Shown here in pieces: positions 2,656 to 56,448 of a stretch of DNA of 64,000 bases. The first letter of the stretch is position 1, and the number at the start of each line of letters is the position of its first letter. The stretch spans positions 1 through 64,000 of IMG/VR virus record IMGVR_UViG_3300035522_000061; one strand, given 5' to 3'. Origin of the DNA: a virus. Taxonomy: Duplodnaviria > Heunggongvirae > Uroviricota > Caudoviricetes. Position numbers and translations under genes: made by a program. The notes below the pieces were generated by a model. That model was not told the origin of the DNA and searched no databases. It was given only the letters and a program-made list of their open reading frames with translations.

Positions 2656-2970
2656 ATGCTTGAGGAAGTTTTAATAAAGAAGATTATGAAGAAGATTATT
2701 TTTAGTTTAGTGTTAATGTTGTTGGGGGTTTGTAATATTAATGCAGAAGTAGTGCGTACTGGTAATACATTTACTACTACTCAAACTACTACTGCTGATA
2801 CTAAAACAGCATATTTTTGGCAAGATAAAGAAGGTAATAAATATCCAATTTATAAGTCTAAAACTGGTTCTTTATATGTAAAGAGAATTAGTAAAAAGAC
2901 TGGTAAAGAGTATAAGTATTATCTGCCTAAAGCGACACAAGATCAAATAAAGTCTCAAACTGGTTTATAA
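2656..2970 (+). CDS. secreted small protein (signal peptide)
   Basis: N-terminal hydrophobic signal (IIFSLVLMLLGVCNINA) followed by a Thr/Lys-rich mature region. Confidence 0.45.
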   Translation: MLEEVLIKKIMKKIIFSLVLMLLGVCNINAEVVRTGNTFTTTQTTTADTKTAYFWQDKEGNKYPIYKSKTGSLYVKRISKKTGKEYKYYLPKATQDQIKSQTGL

Positions 2971-3191
2971 TGGAATTTATAGAATCTGTATTGACGGTTA
3001 TTTTTACAATAATTTTTTTCATCTATTTTATCACGGGAATTATTATAATTATCCGTGCATTTATGGGTGGGAAATAAGGATACGAGAAGAGTCCTATATT
3101 AAGTTCTTCTCAGCTATTAATTTCAAATACATCAGATTCAAACTCTGTTATTTAACGCGAGTTCTGGTGTAAATATTATGTTAGGATCACA

Positions 3192-5023: not shown

Positions 5024-5468
5024 AGATTTCAAACCTGAAGAGCATATCGCTGATTTGAACAACCTGAAAAGAAATCTAATGTGTTTAAACAGACCTTTTA
5101 GTAGAAGTCTGTTTATAAGTGGACTCAAAGGAATTGGTCTGCCGGACAATGATGTTTTTTGGATGGCAGTGAAACGTAGCGGTATTGTACAACAGCTGAG
5201 CAGAGGCTGTTACATATTCAAGAACGATAAGCCAATACATATTAGTGTGCTGGCTAAAATTCACAAAGACTATCGTAAGATAGTCTGTGATTATAGCAAG
5301 ACTTACAGAGAAAAGCATTCCTCAAAAGAAGTTGAGAAACCTGTAGAAGCTCATGTTCAACTAGAACCTGTACATGAACTTACTGAAGAAAATGCAGTCA
5401 AACTTCTGAAAGAGCTAGGCTATATAATATATAAGCCTGAGGTTGCGATTTTCTACAAAAAATTATAA
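5013..5468 (+). CDS. hypothetical protein
   Basis: 151-aa ORF, basic and Lys-rich. Confidence 0.45.
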   Translation: MRSKDFKPEEHIADLNNLKRNLMCLNRPFSRSLFISGLKGIGLPDNDVFWMAVKRSGIVQQLSRGCYIFKNDKPIHISVLAKIHKDYRKIVCDYSKTYREKHSSKEVEKPVEAHVQLEPVHELTEENAVKLLKELGYIIYKPEVAIFYKKL

Positions 5469-21450: not shown

Positions 21451-22071
21451 TTGAAACATTTAACTCTAAGTTTAGAAGAGGAAATAAATCTCTTGGACAA
21501 ATATAATTTAACTCCTAATGAATTCCTAATAGTTAAAGTTCTTCTATTATTGCAAGATAATGAAGAAGAAGAATTGTTTTATAATTTAATAACAACTATA
21601 AAACATATTGGGCTTGCATTGCGAGATATTCTTATTAGTTTACAAGAGAAGGGTGTAATTTTAAAAACATATAAAGTACCATCTGAAGGAACTAAATTTG
21701 ATCCTTTTGCTATTCCTATTAATAAGAATTTTGTAAAGCATTTTTATAAATGTTCTTTTGAAATAGGTAAAGAATTATTTGATAATTATCCTCAGTTCGC
21801 TACTATTAACGGTTGTGTAGTACCCCTACGTACTGTTGCTAAGAAGTTTGATTCATTAGAACAAGCTTATCTTAAATATGGTAGAGCAATTGGATTTAAT
21901 CCAGAAAAGCATGAGAAAATTATAGAATTAGTTAAATGGGCAAAAGACAATAATATCTTAAATTGTTCTTTAGCTTCATTTATAGTTAATGAAGGGTGGC
22001 ACGATTTAGAGGCTCTCAGAAATGGTAAAGATGTGGCAAATATTAATTATGATGCAGTTAGAATTTTATGA
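21451..22071 (+). CDS. hypothetical protein (upstream partner of the helicase, possible loader)
   Basis: 206 aa. ATGA-coupled to the DnaB-like gene. Confidence 0.35.
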   Translation: MKHLTLSLEEEINLLDKYNLTPNEFLIVKVLLLLQDNEEEELFYNLITTIKHIGLALRDILISLQEKGVILKTYKVPSEGTKFDPFAIPINKNFVKHFYKCSFEIGKELFDNYPQFATINGCVVPLRTVAKKFDSLEQAYLKYGRAIGFNPEKHEKIIELVKWAKDNNILNCSLASFIVNEGWHDLEALRNGKDVANINYDAVRIL

Positions 22072-22847
22072 TTGCAGAATCATTACTTCATCAGATTGAA
22101 GTAGGTAGATTAGGTAAGCAGTGGGGATACTCAATGGGTCTCCCAAAATTAGAAGAGATAATAGATGGAGTATCTAGAGGAATTTATACTTTAGTATTTA
22201 GTCCTACTGGTAGTGGTAAGAGTTCACTTGCTTTATATTCTTATGTATATAGACCATTAATGGAACATCTTGATGATGGTAATTTTAAAGTTAGTTATTT
22301 TTCATTAGAGATGAGCGCCGAAATGATCTATGCTAAGATATTAAGTATGTATATCTTTGAAACTTATGGAATAGAGTTGTCTACTGGAGAACTTCTTTCT
22401 AGAAAACGTAATTATAAATTATCTGATGATTATTATAAAATAACTCAAGAATGTTTACCTTGGTTACAGAAGGTTGAAAAGATTTTAGTTATTTATGATA
22501 AAGCATTAAATGCTAGTAGTTTATATACAATCTTAATGGCTCAACTAGAAAAAGATGGCAAGTTTGAAGAAACAGATGGTAGAAAAATATATCATCCTAG
22601 TAATGAAGAACTTACTCATTTAGTAGTTATAGACCATTTAAGTTTAGTAAGAAGGTCTAATGGACGTACTCTAAAAGAAGAAATGGATTTAATATCCTCC
22701 TATTTGGTAACATTAAGAAATATATGTAAAATTAGTCCGCTTGTAATTATGCAAGCAAATCGAAATTCTACTTCTATGGATAGAAGAAAAGAAGGATTAA
22801 ATAACTTAAGAATTGATGATACCAAAGATACTGGTGCGCCAAATTAG
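22068..22847 (+). CDS. DnaB-like replicative helicase RecA-fold domain, exon 1 (gene interrupted)
   Basis: Walker A SPTGSGKSS, Walker B HLVVIDHLS and MQANR motif. The ORF stops just before the conserved arginine-finger region, which reappears ~250 nt downstream. Confidence 0.6.
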   Translation: MIAESLLHQIEVGRLGKQWGYSMGLPKLEEIIDGVSRGIYTLVFSPTGSGKSSLALYSYVYRPLMEHLDDGNFKVSYFSLEMSAEMIYAKILSMYIFETYGIELSTGELLSRKRNYKLSDDYYKITQECLPWLQKVEKILVIYDKALNASSLYTILMAQLEKDGKFEETDGRKIYHPSNEELTHLVVIDHLSLVRRSNGRTLKEEMDLISSYLVTLRNICKISPLVIMQANRNSTSMDRRKEGLNNLRIDDTKDTGAPN

Positions 22848-23091
22848 GGCTAGACGCACCTAAAACTCCGTTAAACGGGGAAACTCCTAAATAGGACAAT
22901 CCCGTGCTAAATCCTTTAGAAATAAAGGAAAACGCCTAACGACTAGAAGTGATGCTAAACAGGTAGAGCTGTAGCTATAAAATCTTCCACGAAAGCGGGG
23001 CACTGCTTACATTTGTAAGTTAAAGAGATAGTCTGAACTATATAGTAATATATAGAAGTATAAGATAAAGAACTTATACGATAACATTATG
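22837..23091 (+). mobile_element. putative group I intron in the DnaB-like helicase gene (no homing endonuclease; boundaries +/-10 nt)
   Basis: ~255-nt GC-richer non-coding gap between two halves of one helicase. The downstream half has no ATG. Confidence 0.4.
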
Positions 23092-23944: not shown

Positions 23945-24871
23945 ATGCAACAAAATAATTATTCATTTTATGTTCTTAAATCGGACATATCGCCAGACGA
24001 AATTCGTTATGTAGGAGTAACTACTCAAAAATTAGATAGAAGATTTTCTCAACATAAATACTGTGCTAACCATCCAGAAAAAAGAGGATTACCTGTTCAT
24101 AAATGGATATACTCTGTATATAAAAATGGGGGCTCAGTTATTATAGAGAAAATAGACGAATGCTCAGAAGAAGCTTGGGAAGCTAGAGAGCAATACTGGA
24201 TTAGTTATTATAAAAACCTTGGACATAAATTAATGAATATTGACAAAGGAGGAAAAGGTGTAATAACTAAAGAAAAAAGAAGTATTGATTCTCTTACAAG
24301 AGCAGGAAATGCCCATAAAAAACCGATAACAGCATTTAATTTAGATGGCACTAAATATAAAGATTTTGATTCTATTACTGAAGCAGCAGCTGAATTAAAC
24401 GGATCAATAACTAATATAGATAGTGTATTAAATGGTAATTCTAAATCAGCTTGTGGTTTTATATGGAAATATAAAACAGAAGAAGAAAAAATAGATTCTT
24501 ATAAAAAAGAATCTATTGGAATTAAAATATATCAGTTTGATTTATATGGAAATTTATTAAGAGAATTTGAAAGTAAAAAGTGTGTAATTCAATTCCTTAA
24601 TAAAAATAGCCACCACGCGTTGGATAAAGCCATAAAAAATAAAACTGAATATAAAAGGTTCTTTTGGGCATTAACTGATAAAATAAATATTTCCGAGTAT
24701 GTATCTCCATTTAAATATAAGATTACTAAAAATGGAGAGGAAGTAATTCAATTAATAGAACAAAAAGAAGTTGCTGAGTATTTATGTATATCTAAATCTG
24801 CTGTTAATCAGTGGTTAAAGAAATATAACGGATCGTTTTCATGTAATAATTATATTGTTGATACAATCTAA
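23945..24871 (+). CDS. GIY-YIG homing endonuclease
   Basis: N-terminal YSFYVL...IRYVGVTTQ...R, then FSQHK and N motifs. C-terminal repeated DNA-binding modules (NUMOD/IENR-like GFIWKYK, HTH). Confidence 0.65.
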   Translation: MQQNNYSFYVLKSDISPDEIRYVGVTTQKLDRRFSQHKYCANHPEKRGLPVHKWIYSVYKNGGSVIIEKIDECSEEAWEAREQYWISYYKNLGHKLMNIDKGGKGVITKEKRSIDSLTRAGNAHKKPITAFNLDGTKYKDFDSITEAAAELNGSITNIDSVLNGNSKSACGFIWKYKTEEEKIDSYKKESIGIKIYQFDLYGNLLREFESKKCVIQFLNKNSHHALDKAIKNKTEYKRFFWALTDKINISEYVSPFKYKITKNGEEVIQLIEQKEVAEYLCISKSAVNQWLKKYNGSFSCNNYIVDTI

Positions 24872-42287: not shown

Positions 42288-43499
42288 ATGAAAGTAACAA
42301 AAAGAAACGGTGAGCCCGCTGAGTTTAATAGAAGTAAAATTGTAAATGCAGTTTCAGCAGCATTTAAAGAATGTGGGTACGAAAGTATCCCTAAAACTAT
42401 TGAGGAAATTGTAGATGAAGTCCAGATTTGGGATAATATCAGTATTGAAGATATACAAGATCAAGTTGAAGAACTTTTAATGGATTATGGATATTCAGAT
42501 GTAGCTAAAGCTTATATTCTTTATAGAGAAGAACGTAAGATGATCCGTGCTGAAAAAGATAAACTCATTAAAGGTATTAAATCTAAACTTGAAGCTTCTA
42601 ATGTAAAAAATCAAAATGCTAATATTGATGAGCATTCATTTGGTGGACGTATTGGCGAAGCAGGTAGAGTTGTAACTAAAGATTATGCTCTTAATTATTG
42701 TATGTCTGAAATGGCTAAGCATAATCATGAAAATAATGAAATATACATTCATGATTTGGATTCTTACGCTGTAGGGATGCACAACTGTTTGAGCATACCA
42801 GTAGATGACTTACTTGCTAACGGGTTTAAGCTAAAGCAAACTGATGTTAGACCTGCTAAGAGTATTAATACAGCATTTCAATTATTAGCTGTAATATTCC
42901 AAGTACAAAGTTTACAACAATTTGGTGGTGTATCTGCAACTCATTTAGATTGGACTATGGTTCCCTATGTAAGACTATCTTTTAATAAGCATTATAGAAC
43001 TGGATTGAAGTATATTGATCACATTCGTAATGAAAAATACGATCAAACAGATTTGTCTATAGAAGATAGTTTGTATAAAGAACATCCTAATTCTTATGAA
43101 TATGCTTTGGATATGACTAAACGAGAAATTCATCAAGCTGTTGAAGGTATGTATCATAATTTAAATACTCTACAAAGTAGAAGTGGTAATCAATTACCTT
43201 TTACTTCTATTAATTATGGTACTTGTACACAACCTGAAGGACGTCTTATTAGTCTAGCTTTACTTGAAGTAAGTAAGAATGGTATTGGTAGCCATCATAG
43301 CACTCCGATTTTTCCGTGCTGTATCGTTCAATTAATGAAAGGTGTTAATCGAAAACCTGGAGATCCGAATTATGATATATTCCAAGAAGCTACTAAGGTT
43401 ACGAGTCTTAGGTTATACCCTAATTATGCCAATGTAGATTGGTCTGGTAATGAAGGGTATGATATAAACGATCCTCGCACTTATTTCAGTACAATGGGT
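42288..43499 (+). CDS. nrdD: anaerobic ribonucleoside-triphosphate reductase NrdD, exon 1 (ATP cone plus N-terminal catalytic region)
   Basis: ATP-cone start MKVTKRNGEPAEFNRSKI. The ORF-track ORF runs to 43505 (...YFSTMGK*). The proposed exon ends after STMG at 43499. Confidence 0.7.
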
Positions 43500-43792
43500 A
43501 AGTGAAAACTGCAGCCCATTTAAAATCTCTTTAACCCTGCTTAAGGGGTGTTTCTATTTAAGCGTAGAAGCTAACGGTTAGGTCTTATTATATAATTGCA
43601 GTGTAAATAATAAGATGAGACCGTGCTAATGTACTTATAGTTATATTAGTACAGAATGTGTATCGACTAAGGGTGATGAGTGTAGCCCTGTAGGATCGGA
43701 GATAAGCACCGATTCCAAACAAGAGACAACTCTTTGTTGTGAAACAAGGAATGAACATATAGTCAGTTCCGATGGTGACATTGGGTAAAATG
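43500..43792 (+). mobile_element. putative group I intron in nrdD (no ORF)
   Basis: 293-nt GC-richer insert. Splicing after ...ATGGGT (U at -1) to TGTAGA... (intron ends in G) gives STMG|CRTANGW. T4 nrdD/sunY is a known intron-containing precedent. Confidence 0.5.
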
Positions 43793-44785
43793 TGTAGAAC
43801 TGCGAATGGCTGGGATATTAATGGTTTTGGTCAACTTAAAGATGGTAGAGGTAATATCTGTCCTGTTACAATCATACTTCCTACACTTGCAATGAATTCT
43901 AAACTGCAAGCTATATCTAATATGGATAATGCAGATGTAAATATCAAGGATTTAGTATGGAATAAATTTATTGAATTGTTGGATACTAAGATTCATGAAG
44001 CAAAAGATATGCTAATTGAACGATTTGATTGGATATGTAGTCAAGATGCTGCATCCGCTAAGTTTATGTATCAAAATAATGTAATGTATGGATATAAACC
44101 TGAAGAAGGTATCCGTTCAGCATTAAAACATGGTACTTTAGCTATTGGTCAATTAGGATTATCAGAAGCTTTGAGAATTATTTTCGGTAAAGACCACACT
44201 GATTCAGAAATTATGGATAAAGCTAAAGAATTAGAAGCTCTCTTTAAGAAGAGATGTAGTGAATTCAAAGAAGCTTATAAACTTAATTTTGGTGTTTACT
44301 ATACTCCTGCTGAAAATCTGTGTTATACAGCAATGCAGAAATTTAAGAAGCAATTTGGCGAAGTTCCAGGAATTACAGAACGTGAGTTCTTTACTAATAG
44401 TATGCACGTACCTGTATGGCATGAATGCACTCCATTTGAGAAAATTGAAATTGAATCACAGCTTACTGGTTTCAGTAGTGCAGGTTGTATAACTTATGTT
44501 GAATTACCTGCTTCTACTAAGCATAATCCAGAAGCTATTGAAGAGATTGTTAATTATGCAATGGATCATGATATTCCATACTTTGCCATTAATGTACCAA
44601 ATGATTCTTGTCAAGACTGTGGTTATATTGATGAATTGAATGATACTTGTCCTATGTGCGGTAGTAAAAATATCAAACGATTACGTCGTGTAACAGGCTA
44701 CCTTACCGGAGACTACAAGACGTCATTTAACGTTGGTAAGCAACAGGAGGTCGAACAACGAGTTAAACATATAAAAGAATTATAA
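43793..44785 (+). CDS. nrdD: NrdD exon 2 (glycyl-radical C-terminal half)
   Basis: Glycyl radical motif RRVTGYLTG near the C-terminus and Zn-ribbon CQDCGY...CPMCGS. The track ORF begins at 43772 inside the putative intron. Confidence 0.7.
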   Translation, partial: CRTANGWDINGFGQLKDGRGNICPVTIILPTLAMNSKLQAISNMDNADVNIKDLVWNKFIELLDTKIHEAKDMLIERFDWICSQDAASAKFMYQNNVMYGYKPEEGIRSALKHGTLAIGQLGLSEALRIIFGKDHTDSEIMDKAKELEALFKKRCSEFKEAYKLNFGVYYTPAENLCYTAMQKFKKQFGEVPGITEREFFTNSMHVPVWHECTPFEKIEIESQLTGFSSAGCITYVELPASTKHNPEAIEEIVNYAMDHDIPYFAINVPNDSCQDCGYIDELNDTCPMCGSKNIKRLRRVTGYLTGDYKTSFNVGKQQEVEQRVKHIKEL

Positions 44786-44787
44786 AA

Positions 44788-44967
44788 ATGACTAAACTTA
44801 CTTTACAGGTAGAAAATACAATTTTTTCTTGGGAAACAAATTGTAATGATTGTTCTGTTGGAGAAATATTGCAAGGATTGCATGGTTTAATGGTGGGGCA
44901 TTCATTTTGTTCTGAAACGGTGCTAAAAGGTATGCGAAATTATGTAGAAGAGAATGAACTATCTTAA
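44788..44967 (+). CDS. hypothetical small Cys-rich protein (59 aa)
   Basis: Fills the nrdD-nrdG gap. Contains CNDCS...GHSFCSE. Below the track threshold. Confidence 0.3.
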   Translation: MTKLTLQVENTIFSWETNCNDCSVGEILQGLHGLMVGHSFCSETVLKGMRNYVEENELS

Positions 44968-45466
44968 AATAACTTATCCTGATATTAATAACGGATGCGG
45001 ATGTCGAGTAACTCTTTGGGTTGCTGGGTGTCCGCATCATTGTATAGGGTGTCATAATCCAGAATCGTGGATTGAAAATAATGGAAAACCTTTTACAGAA
45101 GAAACTAAGAAGCAATTATTTAAAATTCTTGAATTACCTTATATTAAAGGTATAACATTTTCTGGTGGAGAACCTATAAAACTCGATAATTCTAAATATG
45201 CACAAGAGTTAGAAAATCTTATACTTGAGATAAGAGAAAAATTTCCAACTAAAGATATTTGGATTTACACAGGATATACAATAGAACAGATTCTTAAAAA
45301 CTTTAATTGGCATACAGTATTGTGTAATATAGATATTTTAATAGATGGGGAATTTTATTTAGAAGATAGAGATGTATCATTACCTTTTAGAGGTTCAAGC
45401 AATCAAAGAATTATAGATGTTAAAGAATCTTTAGCACAATATCATTTAGTATTAAAGAAATATTAA
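44954..45466 (+). CDS. nrdG: anaerobic ribonucleotide reductase activating protein NrdG (radical SAM)
   Basis: NGCGCRVTLWVAGCPHHCIGCHNPESW carries the CxxxCxxC radical-SAM cluster motif. Located next to nrdD. Confidence 0.8.
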   Translation: MNYLKITYPDINNGCGCRVTLWVAGCPHHCIGCHNPESWIENNGKPFTEETKKQLFKILELPYIKGITFSGGEPIKLDNSKYAQELENLILEIREKFPTKDIWIYTGYTIEQILKNFNWHTVLCNIDILIDGEFYLEDRDVSLPFRGSSNQRIIDVKESLAQYHLVLKKY

Positions 45467-45469
45467 TAT

Positions 45470-45727
45470 ATGGATATATTTATTGTTTATAATGATGAAT
45501 CTACAATAAAGAGAATAGACGGTACTTTTAAAGTATCTCCTTTCTTTCATTTTATAGATGATCAAACTAGATATGGCAAGAAGGAAGCTTGGAAATTAAA
45601 AGGTAGTTTTGGAGCTAGATTAACTCCATTTGTAGCAATATTTGAGAATGATAAACCCATTAAGGCGTTTTATTCAGAAACTGGGGAAGATGTAATTAAA
45701 TCTTTAATTAATTATTTAAATCAATGA
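45470..45727 (+). CDS. hypothetical protein, paralog family B (with 39439..39726)
   Basis: 85 aa. Possible thioredoxin-like fold without CxxC. Sits between nrdG and the phosphatase gene. Confidence 0.45.
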   Translation: MDIFIVYNDESTIKRIDGTFKVSPFFHFIDDQTRYGKKEAWKLKGSFGARLTPFVAIFENDKPIKAFYSETGEDVIKSLINYLNQ

Positions 45728-45930
45728 TAGTAGTTTTAGGAGACATACACGGCAGAACTATATGGAAGAAAATTCTAGAAATAGAGCATCCAGATAAGGT
45801 AATATTTCTTGGAGATTATGTAACTACCCATTATGGTATTTCATCAGAAACACAAATAGAAAATTTAAAAGAGATCCTAACATATAAAGAAAATAATCCT
45901 GACAAAGTAATACTTCTACGAGGAAACCAT
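45724..45930 (+). CDS. lambda-type Ser/Thr protein phosphatase (PPP family), exon 1
   Basis: GDIHGR, FLGDYV and LRGNH motifs. The track ORF continues seven codons to a stop at 45948. Confidence 0.55.
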
Positions 45931-46972
45931 AAAATTAACAAATTTTAAAAATTTTTAATTGGCAATCTGAGGTAATCATATTATATTTGTAATAATAAAA
46001 TTCAAATATATATGAGTACTAGAAAATACTATTTTAATGAAAATTATTTTAATGAGTTAAAAACTCATGAACAAGCATATATATTAGGCTTTATATATGC
46101 AGATGGGTATAATCGAGAAGATTGTCTAGAATTAGATCAATTAGGTGAAAGAATTGATATATTAGAAAAAATTAATAAAGCATTAAATTCCGAATATCCT
46201 ATAAAGAGTTACAGTCCCAATATTTATAGACTTACTTTTAATAGTGTAAAATTATGTTCCGATTTGATAAAACTAGGAGCAATCCGCAATAAATCTTTAA
46301 CTCTTACTTTTCCAACTTTTATTCCTATTGAATTAATGTCTTCTTTTATTTTAGGATATTTTGACGGGGATGGTTGTGTTTGGAACGGTAAACGTAAAGT
46401 AATGACTGTAAAAAATGAAAAGAAGCCTGGAGAATATAGAAATAGAATAGTTCATAATGTAAAATTTACTTTTACTGGCAATTCTGAATTTATAAGTTCT
46501 TTACAGGATTTTTTAATTCAACAGGGTATTGTTTCTAAAAAAACTAAATTAAATTTTAGTAAAGCGAAGAATCCTAACACTCCTACGTGTGATAAAGTTT
46601 GCACAATGGAATATTCTGGTAGAAAACAAATGCGAAATTTGTATGAATATATGTATTCTAAATCACCTATTTGGTGTAATGAAAAAAAATTAAAATTTGA
46701 ACAAATATTTTGTGCGTCTAAGGAGAAATCCTTAGAGGACACCTCGTTAATTGCTGGAACGTCTGAGATGATAATCAGCAGCCAAGCTTCAGATAATATA
46801 TCTGTTGAAGGTTCATCGACTATCCCTGAAATGGGAGTAGAATCAAGTGATTCGAAATGCGAGGCTCCTAACTCTGTAAAAGAGAAGGATGAAGATATAG
46901 TCAGTTCTGCAACAAAATGAAGTTGCAGCGTTAAAATTGGGATTAATTTAACGAATTAATCTAAACAAAAAG
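45931..46972 (+). mobile_element. putative group I intron with LAGLIDADG homing endonuclease inside the phosphatase gene
   Basis: Splicing after ...AACCAT (U at -1) to GATAATCAAGAA... (intron ends in G at 46972) joins RGNH|DNQELGYSW, recreating the GNHD/E motif. The downstream frame is open from 46973 with no ATG. Confidence 0.5.
46012..46920 (+). CDS. LAGLIDADG homing endonuclease
   Basis: LGFIYADGY and LGYFDGDGCV motifs. Ser/Glu-rich C-terminal tail. Confidence 0.7.
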   Translation: MSTRKYYFNENYFNELKTHEQAYILGFIYADGYNREDCLELDQLGERIDILEKINKALNSEYPIKSYSPNIYRLTFNSVKLCSDLIKLGAIRNKSLTLTFPTFIPIELMSSFILGYFDGDGCVWNGKRKVMTVKNEKKPGEYRNRIVHNVKFTFTGNSEFISSLQDFLIQQGIVSKKTKLNFSKAKNPNTPTCDKVCTMEYSGRKQMRNLYEYMYSKSPIWCNEKKLKFEQIFCASKEKSLEDTSLIAGTSEMIISSQASDNISVEGSSTIPEMGVESSDSKCEAPNSVKEKDEDIVSSATK

Positions 46973-47449
46973 GATAATCAAGAACTTGGATATAGTTGGG
47001 GTGAATGTTCTGGATATGATTCATATGTAGCTAAACATATGACTGCTATGAAGGATAGATTTCTAGAAGATACTCAATGGATACATATTGAAAATAATAT
47101 AATCTTTTCACATGCTGGAGTTTCTAAGGTTTGGTTAGAACAAAGTGCTAAAGTTAAGCTAGAGGATGTTAATAAATTACCCCCTTCAGAAATATTTGGA
47201 TTTATTCCTGATAATCGCTATGATTTCTGTGGAGAATCAGTAACACAATCTATTACTTGGATTCGACCCACTAAGTTAATATCATGTAATATAGATGGAT
47301 ATGATCAAGTAATTGGTCATAGTCCTGTAGAAGAAATTACAAGCATGGTAGCAGATAATGGACAATTAATTTATGCGTGTGATTGTCTCGAAAACAAACA
47401 GTATTTAGTTATTGATAATAATAAATTTATTCCTAAAAGTATTTTATAA
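46973..47449 (+). CDS. Ser/Thr protein phosphatase exon 2
   Basis: IFSHAGV (HGG-type motif) and VIGHSP (final GH motif). The first Met is at 47039 but the frame opens at 46973. Confidence 0.55.
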   Translation, partial: DNQELGYSWGECSGYDSYVAKHMTAMKDRFLEDTQWIHIENNIIFSHAGVSKVWLEQSAKVKLEDVNKLPPSEIFGFIPDNRYDFCGESVTQSITWIRPTKLISCNIDGYDQVIGHSPVEEITSMVADNGQLIYACDCLENKQYLVIDNNKFIPKSIL

Positions 47450-53154: not shown

Positions 53155-54444
53155 ATGATTTATTTAGTAAGTAAAGATAAAAAACTATATTCTCCAGAAA
53201 GATATAGAGAAGTAGACTTTAAGGAGGCTATGGATATTTTATATCCTTTAAAAGAGGTACAATTAGATACAGAAACTAAAGGATTAGATTGTTTTACGAA
53301 GGAATTACTTACTTTGCAATTAGGGTGTACTGAAAATCAAGTTGTATTTGATTGGAGAACTATAAGTCCTTCTGAAAAGTCTATTTTAAAAGAATATCTA
53401 GAGTCTGATAGAGTGTTCTTGGGGCATAATATAATGTTTGATTTAACCTTTTTATATAAACAAAATATTTGGCCCAATCATGTTTATGATACTATGGTAG
53501 TAGAACAATTAATATATTTAGGGTATCCTAGAGTATTAGCTACCGAAATAGTACAGACATATGGAATTAAACCTTCTTGTTATGAATATATTGCTCCCGA
53601 CGAAAAAACTAAAGAACATTGGGAATTATCTTATTCTTTACGAGCTACTGCAAAAAGAAGACTTGGAGTAGATATTGACAAAACTGTTCGAGGAAAAATT
53701 ATAAATGAAGGTTTAACAGAAGATGTTGTAGTATATGCTGCTGGGGATGTAATGTGGCTAGAGCCTATAAAAGAAAAGCAACTAGAAGAATTATCTACTC
53801 AAGATCTTTTAAAGGCTGCAGAATTTGAATGTGAATTTATTAAATTTTTAGCATATGTAAAATTCTGTGGAGTTCATTTGGATATTTCTAAATGGAAAGA
53901 AAAAATGAAAAATGATCAAGCTTCTTTAAGAGAAGCTGAGTCACAATTAAATAAATTTGTTATAGATTTAGATGCTAAAGAATATTTATATAGATATGCT
54001 AAAAATAAAAAAGAAAAAGAAAAATTAGTAGCATTAGGATTTATTCGATTTCCCGAAAAAGATGATTCTATGGAGTGTTACAGATATAAAATAAAAGGAA
54101 AATTTGTATCTATAAATTTACAATTATCCTTATTTGAAGAATGTAATGACATAGGGCCACAATGCACTATAAATTGGAGTAGTTCTACTCAAGTTATAAA
54201 ATTATTTGAACTTCTTGGGATACAAGTTACAACTTTTGATAAAAAGACTAAAAAAGAAAAGAAGTCCATTAATGCTACGTTAATTAGTTCTCAAGTTGAT
54301 AAATTTCCTATTCTTGCTATATTTTTAAAGTATCAAGCCGCCTCAAAAGTTGTATCTACTTATGGTCAAAACTGGTTAGACGCTATTAATCCAGTAACTG
54401 GAAGAATTCATGTTGATCTACATTCTATTGGAACAGATACAGGT
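53155..54444 (+). CDS. family A DNA polymerase, exon 1 (3'-5' exonuclease plus N-terminal polymerase part)
   Basis: Exo I QLDTETKGLD, Exo II HNIMFDL and Exo III YAAGDV. Ends ...VTGRIHVDLHSIGTDTG. The track ORF stops at 54459. Confidence 0.7.
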
Positions 54445-55515
54445 GAAAAATTTCCATAAATTACAATTTTTCTATTAATTTTATTTCTAAGGTATTAACT
54501 ATTTTAATCTGTCCTAAATAATTATTATATTTGCATATAATAAATTTAAATTAAATATATGTATTATGATTAAAAAATGGACTGAGTAGGAAATAGAAAA
54601 TTTAGTATCTGAGTATAACTCAGGTAAAGATACTGGAGAATTAGCAGTTATGTTTAATTGTTCTAAGTATCAAATTAGAAATAAATTAAAAGATAAGGGG
54701 ATTGTTTTAAGAAAAACTGCCCTTAATCGAACTTATAAATCGAAAGCTATTGTTCCGTTACAAGCATGGACAGATAAAATAGGCAGTCCAGAATTTGACT
54801 ATTTTATTGGAATACTAGCCTCGGATGGTTGTATTGTTGATACTTGTACAGCTTTAGAAGTTAAAGATTTAGAATTAATAGAAAATTATAATAAATTTTT
54901 AGGTTTTCGATGTAATATTAATTCAAGAAAATCTAAAGTTAATGGCAATGTCTATTATAATATTAAGTATAAAAATAAAGAAATAGTTAACTTTTTATCT
55001 GAATATGGTATAGTGCCAAGAAAATCTAACATACTAATGCTTCCATATATAAATTGGAATATATTATTAGGAATTTTTGATGGAGATGGTAGTATTACTA
55101 AAGATAAAAGATATGAGTGCTGTTTTAAATTTACTATTACTTCTGGAAGTATTAATTTTATTAATCAAGTTAAGAAGTTTTTAGAAAAAGAGAATATCTC
55201 TCCAAATATACAAGAATATAATACAGATAGTGGACATTGGTATAATATATATGTAACTAAAGGTGAACATATATATAAAATATATTGTAATTTATATAAA
55301 GACTCCTCTTTCTTTCTGTCTAGAAAGAAAGAAAAATTCGGCCCCTTAGTAGAGAAATTTGCTAAGTGTAACTCCGTAAATTCAGTTAATGGGAGGGAAA
55401 ACCAGAAGACTGAGCCAAGCCTTAATATTGAGGAAGGTGCAGAGACTAGAAACGGAGAACCTAAGTAATAAGTAATTGTTATAAGGTTGAGGTATAGTCC
55501 GGCATGGAAATGTTG
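54445..55515 (+). mobile_element. putative group I intron with LAGLIDADG homing endonuclease splitting the DNA polymerase gene
   Basis: Splicing after ...GATACAGGT (U at -1) to CGAGTATCTAGT... (intron ends in G) yields GTDTG|RVSSGGG..NLP, restoring the Pol I TGR(L)SS...QNIP motif. Confidence 0.5.
54650..55468 (+). CDS. LAGLIDADG homing endonuclease
   Basis: IGILASDGCI and LGIFDGDGSI motifs. Confidence 0.7.
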   Translation: MFNCSKYQIRNKLKDKGIVLRKTALNRTYKSKAIVPLQAWTDKIGSPEFDYFIGILASDGCIVDTCTALEVKDLELIENYNKFLGFRCNINSRKSKVNGNVYYNIKYKNKEIVNFLSEYGIVPRKSNILMLPYINWNILLGIFDGDGSITKDKRYECCFKFTITSGSINFINQVKKFLEKENISPNIQEYNTDSGHWYNIYVTKGEHIYKIYCNLYKDSSFFLSRKKEKFGPLVEKFAKCNSVNSVNGRENQKTEPSLNIEEGAETRNGEPK

Positions 55516-56448
55516 CGAGTATCTAGTGGTGGTGGTCAGTATAAATTAAACCAACAGAATTTACCACATGATAAAATAACTAGAGCATGTTTTACTTCAG
55601 AAAAAGGTAATAAATGGATTTCTTGTGATTACCAAAGTCAAGAAAGTAGAATTATTGCATCTGTTTCTAAAGATAAAGCTATGGTAGAATTATTTGAATC
55701 TGGATGTGGAGATGTTCATAGTTTGGTTGCCTATATGTCTTATCCTAATATAATTCCCAGAGACACTAAAATAGAAGATATAAATGAACTATATCACGAT
55801 CAAAGACAGGATGCAAAAGGAATTGAGTTTTCAGTTAATTATGGCGGGGATGCTAAAACTATAGCTAATAATAAAGGTATTCCGTTGCGAGCTGCAGAAA
55901 AGATATATTCTGATTTTATGAGGGGTTTTCCAGGAGTAGCTCAATATCAAGAGTATTGTAGGCAAAATGTAATGGAAAAAGGATATATCTTAATGAACTC
56001 TATACTAAAGCATAGAGCCCATATTTATGATGCAGATTGGATTATACAAATGCATGAGAAATGTAAAGATCCTGAATATTGGCAATATTATCAAGAAATG
56101 AAAATAGAATCTCCACATTGTGACACTGTTAGAAATGTTAGTCATTATCTTAGTCGGAAATCAGACTGTGAAAAGCAATCCATAAACTACAGAATACAAA
56201 ATCGTGGGGCCTGCGCTTTCAAATTATCTGCAATTAAACTATTTAATTGGATAAAAGATAATAATTTACTTAATGTAGTCAAAATATGTGTAGTAGCACA
56301 TGATGAATTTAATCTAGAGTGCCCAGAAGATATGGCAGAATATATTGGAGATATATTAGTCAAATGTATGATTGCAGGAGGAAAACCTTTTTGTCCGAAT
56401 GTATTTTTAGGAGCTGATAAAACTATAAGTGATCACTGGATTCATTAA
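55516..56448 (+). CDS. family A DNA polymerase, exon 2 (palm and fingers: motifs A, B and C)
   Basis: Motif A DYQSQESRI, motif B RQDAKGIEFSVNYGG and motif C VVAHDEF. The track ORF starts at 55504. Confidence 0.7.
   Translation, partial: RVSSGGGQYKLNQQNLPHDKITRACFTSEKGNKWISCDYQSQESRIIASVSKDKAMVELFESGCGDVHSLVAYMSYPNIIPRDTKIEDINELYHDQRQDAKGIEFSVNYGGDAKTIANNKGIPLRAAEKIYSDFMRGFPGVAQYQEYCRQNVMEKGYILMNSILKHRAHIYDADWIIQMHEKCKDPEYWQYYQEMKIESPHCDTVRNVSHYLSRKSDCEKQSINYRIQNRGACAFKLSAIKLFNWIKDNNLLNVVKICVVAHDEFNLECPEDMAEYIGDILVKCMIAGGKPFCPNVFLGADKTISDHWIH

Follow-up and report, generated by a model that had tools for sequence, protein, structure and literature searches.

Among phage genes, those for RNRs, especially nrdD, are the ones most frequently found split (PMC3653736). 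A classic case in nrdD is the sunY intron of phage T4, a 1-kb element of subgroup IA2 that carries a GIY-YIG gene (I-TevII). A hallmark of IA2 introns is a pair of hairpins, termed P7.1 and P7.2, between P7 and the 3' strand of P3 (PMC4227781). A 'non-coding intron' has already been noted in the nrdD gene of Lactococcus phage 949 (PMC3653736), for which we came across neither a published structure nor a test of its splicing. Flanking-exon co-conversion during homing has been described for T4 introns (PMC2988022), and ORF-less phage introns can be mobilised by free-standing endonucleases in a process called 'collaborative homing' (PMC3984707). RNRs that are genuinely split also have a precedent, the NrdA of phage Aeh1 (PMC3653736, PMC2988022). 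Here, we describe a 293-nt insert in the nrdD gene of a tailed phage (Caudoviricetes) represented by IMG/VR record IMGVR_UViG_3300035522_000061, of which positions 1 to 64,000, henceforth termed the window, were analysed. We conclude, with a probability of roughly 0.9, that positions 43500-43792 are a group I intron that has no ORF and whose predicted splicing restores full-length NrdD. This reading is supported directly by the insert boundaries, by exon restoration, by a secondary structure with covariation, by membership in an intron family and by same-site orthologs.

The nrdD gene of the window is interrupted in the part that encodes its catalytic-cysteine loop. An ORF on the + strand (42288-43505, 405 aa) encodes the ATP-cone and the N-terminal two-thirds of NrdD and terminates with ...YFSTMGK and a stop codon; the C-terminal third, with the Zn-ribbon and the glycyl-radical motif RRVTGYLTG, continues in another frame from 43793. 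The first in-frame ATG of this C-terminal frame, at 43772, sits 266 nt past the stop of the N-terminal ORF, close to the 270 nt given in a first-pass annotation of this DNA. Without the 293 nt of 43500-43792, the junction reads ...AGT ACA ATG GGT/TGT AGA ACT... (expected letters ...ACAATGGGT joined to TGTAGAACT...), which restores the thiyl-radical loop STMG/CRT and places the insertion point at the codon of the catalytic cysteine (MG/CR). Thus, the annotated restoration of the frame holds up, whereas its serine codon TCA is actually AGT. Conceptual splicing yields a 2205-nt ORF for a collinear NrdD of 734 aa, to which the Pfam family NRDD matches without interruption over residues 110-730 (490 bits). 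An alignment with a homologue, proposed at the time as a check, bore this out: the solved NrdD 8p23 is collinear with the spliced product and gap-free at the junction, with 'stMGCRt' on 'atMGCRT'. U at exon position -1 (43499) and G as the last insert base (43792) were confirmed. The insert was described as GC-richer than its surroundings, and the direction is right but the difference modest (37.5% compared with 32.8% and 33.6% in the nrdD exons, i.e., about 33%, and 30% in the whole window). The description as ORF-less is accurate, as no + strand ORF of at least 30 aa lies inside the insert; two antisense ORFs of 56 and 46 aa are present, and neither matches any Pfam family. In annotation, the window nrdD should be entered as a single spliced gene rather than as a pair of fragments or a pseudogene.

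Such a gene might also work if each half were translated on its own, with ATG 43772 or ATG 43790 as the start of the second, and the halves assembled into an active enzyme without any splicing. In-frame ATGs do occur just upstream of exon 2, and Aeh1 NrdA provides a phage precedent for a split RNR. However, the break lies inside the MG/CR finger loop, where the thiyl-radical cysteine resides, ATG 43772 is not preceded by an evident Shine-Dalgarno sequence, and separate translation would leave the complete covarying ribozyme fold of the insert, described below, unexplained. We consider this route very improbable.

The boundaries of the insert are defined by an intron-less allele. IMG/VR contigs L003-L005, which are identical to one another across the fetched stretch, encode a NrdD 99% identical to that of the window and are without exactly these 293 nt (empty site ...ACAATGGGATGCAGGACA...). 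Positions 5106/5107 of L003 correspond to window positions 43499/43793; the boundaries are unambiguous, the insert ends share no base, and no target-site duplication is found at these ends in the comparison with L003. The same split nrdD with an identical insert occurs on 7 independently assembled JGI contigs, which excludes an assembly artefact. Over the whole gene, the window and L003 alleles differ by 98 nt and 25 aa, a mostly synonymous divergence. Within about 400 nt around the junction (~270 nt on its upstream and ~140 nt on its downstream side), their sole differences are five synonymous ones at -13, -1, +3, +6 and +9, corresponding to the codon pairs (window/L003) TTC/TTT, GGT/GGA, TGT/TGC, AGA/AGG and ACT/ACA. 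One of these, GGT/GGA at -1, creates the U(-1) of the intron-bearing allele. This cluster straddling the junction looks like a co-conversion tract, or like adaptation to or selection on the splice-site context. The L003 allele also holds an in-frame LAGLIDADG intein of 295 aa (L003 3496-4380, corresponding to about window position 42789) at MHN/C, another conserved NrdD cysteine, i.e., nrdD carries an intron in the window allele and an intein in its sister.

An intein elsewhere in the same gene of a sister phage raises the question of whether the insert at 43500-43792 could be an intein itself, a group II intron, a MITE or IS, or a translational bypass element. An intein is at odds with the in-frame TGA at nucleotides 4-6 and with a length of 293 nt, which is not a multiple of three and puts the insert out of frame. 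The same short length and the lack of any group II match in Rfam argue against a group II intron, the absence of terminal inverted repeats and of a target duplication at unambiguous boundaries against a MITE or IS, and a size far beyond the known 50-nt bypass against a bypass element. Structure and boundary data effectively refute these readings, to which we assign a negligible chance.

To classify the insert as a group I intron, an Rfam or Infernal search had been proposed, and its outcome depended on the model. An Rfam scan of the window at the gathering score left the insert without a match, and in permissive mode RF00028 reached 21.2 bits (E = 0.003; gathering score 50) in a weak match spanning only J8/7-P7-P9. 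At its gathering score, RF00028 misses every intron-family member scanned, and also the intron of Thomasclavelia phage TR-TP2; the negative at this locus is therefore not evidence of absence, and the low score reflects model coverage rather than a missing intron. A blastn search returned a 39-nt match to Staphylococcus phages, from which we derived a 24-nt core comprising P7 and P7.1, GACTAAGGGTGATGAGTGTAGCCC, that was found in 27 IMG/VR loci. An exact 29-mer including the J6/7 of the window copy had no match in viral contigs, and megablast of nrdD against the phage collection returned nothing. A metagenome scan with the core and the J8/7 variant of the window copy gave 0 matches, that collection evidently being without the identical JGI contigs.

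Twelve non-redundant family members, with the window excluded, were aligned (alignment A1) as the basis of a covariance model, R1. RNAalifold, applied unaided to A1, recovered the long-range helix P3 (4 of 7 pairs compensatory) as well as P4, P7.1 and P8. R1 matched the window at 43521-43766 over the full model length with 97 bits (E = 1.6e-21), so that the proposed search is positive with a purpose-built model and negative with RF00028. R1 further matched an RF00028-validated intron at 22825-23035 of the window (47.6 bits, E = 9.8e-10) and the core of the T4 sunY intron (57.3 bits, E = 2.4e-12), and through these cross-matches the family is linked to genuine group I introns. In an alignment of 28 hits, which was fitted to R1 and so leans towards the modelled structure, 96.9% of the cells are paired, compared with 30-43% with slid partners, and 24 of 33 pairs are compensatory (P3 6/7, P4 6/6, P8 5/5, P7.1 4/5); none of 500 shuffles reaches the observed covariation values. 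RNAalifold on A1 and minimum free energy (MFE) folds of four same-site orthologs, which show the same architecture with different sequences, were both unguided and agree with the model-fitted structure. With the standard Rfam model, introns of this family will go unnoticed in phages of the gut, of lactococci and of staphylococci, and in many public records, among them those of PMBT8, 949 and TR-TP1/2, the pieces are annotated as separate or hypothetical proteins.

At the predicted boundaries, we identified the elements of the claimed group I intron, i.e., P1 with a U.G pair, P10, P3 to P9, P7.1, P7.2 and the terminal G (Table 1). P7 is the guanosine-binding helix of group I introns generally. 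All listed pairs of the window copy are canonical, and an unguided MFE fold recovers P1, P3, P4, P5, P6a, P7.1, P7.2, P8 and P9 (z = -4.1). The wobble at the 5' splice site is formed by U43499, the U of position -1, and G43514 (intron G15). Phage 949 also preserves the P10 pairing, as UGUA/UGCA, and the P9 loop GGUGAC is common to the window, 949, L117, L121 and introns of the L084 type. No P2 and no extended P9.1/P9.2 were present in the fold of the window copy, whose domain 9 consists of a single P9 hairpin and an 8-nt tail. Several conserved joints depart from the wider family consensus, namely J4/5 (AGG, not AAA), J5/4 (UGA), P6 (U.U) and J8/7 (AACAUA versus AAGAGA). Alternative pairings were rejected. 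A standard layout, in which the 3' arm of extra hairpin 2 would serve as the P3 5' strand, was discarded on the grounds that this arm covaries with its own 5' arm, that no conserved complementarity links it to the P3 3' strand, and that the upstream strand covaries with the P3 3' strand. A GGCU/AGCC pairing and a GGU/ACG mini-helix suggested by RNAalifold were not adopted, their bases being mostly invariant.

Table 1. Features of the interrupted nrdD locus and predicted ribozyme elements. Intron positions, given in brackets, plus 43499 equal window coordinates.
Feature	Window position (intron position)	Strand	Remarks
nrdD exon 1	42288..43499	+	ATP-cone and NrdD N-terminal part, codons 1-404, ends ...STMG
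Intron, 293 nt, ORF-less	43500..43792	+	Empty site in L003-L005; R1 97 bits; MFE z = -4.1
nrdD exon 2	43793..44785	+	First codon TGT = catalytic Cys; Zn-ribbon, glycyl-radical motif RVTGY
nrdG activase, intact operon partner	44954..45466	+	Fer4_12 153 bits, Radical_SAM
P1 5' strand, exon AAUGGGU	43493..43499	+	7/7 pairs with 43514-43520; identical in phage 949
P10 guide CUGCA	43509..43513 (10-14)	+	5/5 pairs with 3' exon UGUAG 43793-43797, direct reading
P1 3' strand / internal guide sequence GCCCAUU	43514..43520 (15-21)	+	
P3 5' strand UCUCUU	43526..43531 (27-32)	+	Pairs with 43721-43726; conserved UAAAA precedes
Extra hairpin 1 in P3-J3/4 interval	43535..43547 (36-48)	+	CCCU GCUUA AGGG
Extra hairpin 2	43550..43571 (51-72)	+	GUUUCUA ... 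UAGAAGC; closing GU...GC family-invariant
J3/4	between extra hairpin 2 and P4		UA in window copy
P4	43574-43579 / 43619-43624 (75-80 / 120-125)	+	
P5, with J4/5 and J5/4	43583-43591 / 43607-43615 (84-92 / 108-116)	+	
P6	within 43625..43659 (126-127 / 159-160)	+	GC/GU; weakened by U.U mismatch
P6a hairpin	43630-43635 / 43648-43653 (131-136 / 149-154)	+	
P7 5' strand GACUA	43665..43669 (166-170)	+	Pairs with 43760-43764; invariant in 28/28 aligned sequences
P7.1 hairpin	43670..43689 (171-190)	+	Conserved loop GAUGAGUGUA
P7.2 hairpin	43693..43716 (194-217)	+	Loop AGAUAAGCA common to phage 949
P3 3' strand AAGAGA	43721..43726 (222-227)	+	
P8	43727..43753 (228-254)	+	C43727-G43753, A-U, then 43731-43738 / 43743-43750; GUGA loop
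J8/7 (AACAUA) and P7 3' strand UAGUC (261-265)	43754..43764	+	
P9 hairpin	43769..43784 (270-285)	+	CCGAU GGUGAC AUUGG
Terminal guanosine omega-G293	43792	+	Last intron base; tail GUAAAAUG (...UAAAAUG) like other family 3' ends

The core of the intron resembles that of subgroup IA2, with P7.1 and P7.2 at 43670-43689 and 43693-43716 and with the family model scoring 57.3 bits against the core of the type member sunY. The two introns share the host gene nrdD, the UAAAA-P3 lead-in, similar P4-P6 sequences, the P7.1 loop GAUGARUGUA (GAUGAAUGUA in sunY, the counterpart of GAUGAGUGUA in the window), P7.2, the adjacency of P3' and P8, and J8/7-P7. The extended domain 9 of IA2 introns (P9.0, P9.1, P9.2) and their standard 5' layout (P1-P2-P3, with P3 adjoining J3/4) are, in contrast, not found in the window copy. 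In sunY, whose layout was read from its R1 alignment, the P3 5' strand abuts J3/4 (UAAAA-P3-UAA-P4), whereas the window intron has two hairpins between them and no P2. This pair of hairpins separating the P3 5' strand from J3/4 is family-wide, with different sequences in each member type and invariant flanks (UGAA, GUGU and GC-UAA), while a classical P2 is optional in the family. Relative to sunY, the layout has the appearance of an insertion into the P3/J3-4 joint. In a search of the literature on hairpins between P3 and P4, including a survey of IStron IA2 introns, we found no description of such an arrangement; this search was far from exhaustive. We tentatively propose, as a possibility that we hold to be somewhat less than even, a widespread unannotated sunY-like (IA2-type) subclass with two covarying P3-J3/4 hairpins, an optional P2 and a layout outside RF00028. 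If undescribed, the two-hairpin layout would amount to a new subgroup in which the junction of P3 and P4 is built differently. The insertion at P3/J3-4 could serve structural work on ribozymes.

The sunY intron had been cited as the precedent for this insert, and it is one with respect to the gene and not with respect to the site. We considered a shared insertion site and rejected it on the NrdD alignment: the T4 intron lies ~110 codons upstream, just before EVNTLF, which corresponds to HNLNTLQ in the window. The true same-site counterpart is the nrdD intron of Lactococcus phage 949 (NC_015263, 58508-58827; L115 8508-8827), which is inserted at ATG GGT/TGC AGA, i.e., MG/CR. It is likewise ORF-less, scores 86.8 bits with R1, has a near-identical 5' end and guide sequence, and shares the J4/5-P5-J5/4, L7.1, L7.2 and L9 motifs at 76% column identity. 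It differs in length (320 nt versus 293), in an extra hairpin after P7.1 and a P9.1-like hairpin, and in compensatory stem changes in P3, both extra hairpins, P4, P6a, P7.1, P7.2 and P9. The host phage and NrdD background of 949 are distant from those of the window. In this respect the window intron is a fairly ordinary phage intron, its same-site ortholog having been noted already, though uncharacterised.

A search with the junction-plus-guide pattern located this intron at the identical nrdD position in six further IMG/VR contigs (L116-L121), and the MG/CR intron is thus spread over at least four NrdD backgrounds, the window included. In the orthologs of 949 and L116-L121 the helices are fully canonical and the changes compensatory. 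L121, whose exons and intron ends are nearest to those of the window, has a GIY-YIG gene (PF01541, 41 bits) inside its P6a loop, and the same-site intron of L120 carries an HNH-like gene. In the GIY-YIG gene of L121 (4945-5782), the only in-frame stops are four TAG codons, and the match to PF01541 is obtained with TAG read as Gln, which suggests recoding of the amber codon in the L121 phage. A suppressor tRNA is annotated in the record of phage 949; none was found when sought in the 64-kb window.

The orthologs also bear on whether the insert might be a decayed, splicing-dead group I relic in an nrdD pseudogene that is tolerated since the host supplies NrdD. The departures from consensus in J4/5, P6 and J8/7 could be taken as signs of decay, as could an R1 score of 97 bits where most family members reach 160-213, the lack of an endonuclease gene in the insert, and the existence of sister phages that do without the intron. 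Yet the two exons are intact and retain every catalytic motif, nrdG is intact, every helix is fully canonical, and the differences from the L003 allele (98 nt, 25 aa) are for the most part synonymous. The unusual joints, moreover, recur in orthologs of three other phage lineages: the J4/5-P5-J5/4 variant of the window copy is kept in 949, L117 and L121, which suggests a constrained sub-lineage and speaks against decay. A relic is in our judgement unlikely, and the intact exons, the intact nrdG and the fully paired helices argue that the window ribozyme is functional.

From established group I chemistry, splicing of the window intron would proceed as follows. In the folded pre-mRNA, exon AAUGGGU would pair with the guide GCCCAUU as P1, with the U.G pair marking the cleavage site, and a free guanosine bound in P7 would attack after U43499. 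The guide CUGCA would position the 3' exon UGUAG through P10, the terminal G43792 would take the place of the cofactor in P7, and the 3'-OH of exon 1 would attack after G43792, ligating the exons to ...AUGGGU/UGUAGA... and thereby producing a full-length NrdD mRNA. Ribosomes entering the unspliced RNA would be halted by the TGA at intron nucleotides 4-6.

Both the splicing itself and the route of mobility are what we infer for this element. At the DNA level, it appears to belong to one homing lineage specific to the MG/CR site, with siblings that carry a GIY-YIG or HNH endonuclease gene, and to be the endonuclease-free member of that lineage. Lacking an endonuclease ORF of its own in a peripheral loop, the window copy would have either lost the gene or come to depend on an endonuclease supplied in trans. 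Collaborative homing offers a mechanistic analogy only; no free-standing endonuclease gene is recognisable in the flanks of the window nrdD. With ORF-less, GIY-YIG and HNH versions at a single site, the lineage lends itself, as a compact natural series, to the study of how endonucleases are gained and lost.

The loop with the catalytic cysteine of NrdD is a recurrent landing site: besides the lineage at MG/CR, a different intron is inserted 4 nt away, another family member ~20 codons downstream (L088), and the intein of the sister allele at another conserved Cys. The intron 4 nt away is found in Thomasclavelia phages TR-TP1 and TR-TP2, whose NrdD is the closest cultured relative of the window NrdD (66% aa identity). 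Their intron also interrupts the MGCR motif and is group I-like (RF00028, 27.9 bits), but it is inserted at AT/G, 4 nt upstream of the window site, and comprises 877 nt with a NUMOD4+HNH gene. R1 did not match the TR-TP2 intron at E <= 1, which indicates a different intron lineage. The TR-TP2 record lists nrdD as a pair of genes together with an 'HNH endonuclease', and conceptual splicing of the intron (L002 4248-5124) gives an intact ORF. L088 contains two family members in the nrdD of another phage at other sites (977-1227 and 2214-2492), the second of them after ...FWGR/F.

The wider family (L001, L083-L109), found in contigs of gut phages and in Staphylococcus phage PMBT8, shares with the window intron the element order, the two P3-J3/4 hairpins and the invariant 24-mer of P7 and P7.1, and comprises both ORF-less and ORF-in-loop versions. 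Unlike the window intron, they occupy different genes or, in L088, different sites of nrdD; a small P2 with a GUAA cap is present in some, and public records leave them unannotated. In L084 (948-2015), and likewise in L085, L100, L108 and L109, three different family members are packed into ~1.1 kb, seemingly within a single gene of a lineage of gut phages. PMBT8 (L001) holds an unannotated ORF-less member at ~2905-3165 between two 'hypothetical protein' CDSs, and a canonical RF00028 intron (492-751, 101 bits) that splits an amidase/lysin gene.

Further inserts occur on the + strand of the window itself. A canonical group I intron with the standard P2-P3-J3/4 layout (22798-23055; RF00028, 70 bits) interrupts a DnaB-like helicase gene (ORF 22068-22847, PF03796), and a free-standing GIY-YIG + NUMOD1 homing-endonuclease-like ORF (23945-24871) follows ~900 nt downstream of it. 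An insert at ~45940-46990 breaks a calcineurin-like phosphoesterase gene after GNH (45724-45948, with the C-terminal part at 47039-47449). The insert contains a LAGLIDADG ORF (46012-46920), and its own 3' end is matched by the family model (46703-46904, 34 bits); this is probably the third group I intron of the window. A fourth intron is probably represented by the insert at 54460-55503, which splits a DNA polymerase gene (53155-54459 / 55504-56448) and contains a LAGLIDADG ORF (54650-55468; PF14528, 49 bits) and a weak match to the ribozyme core (55353-55501, 17 bits, E = 0.017).
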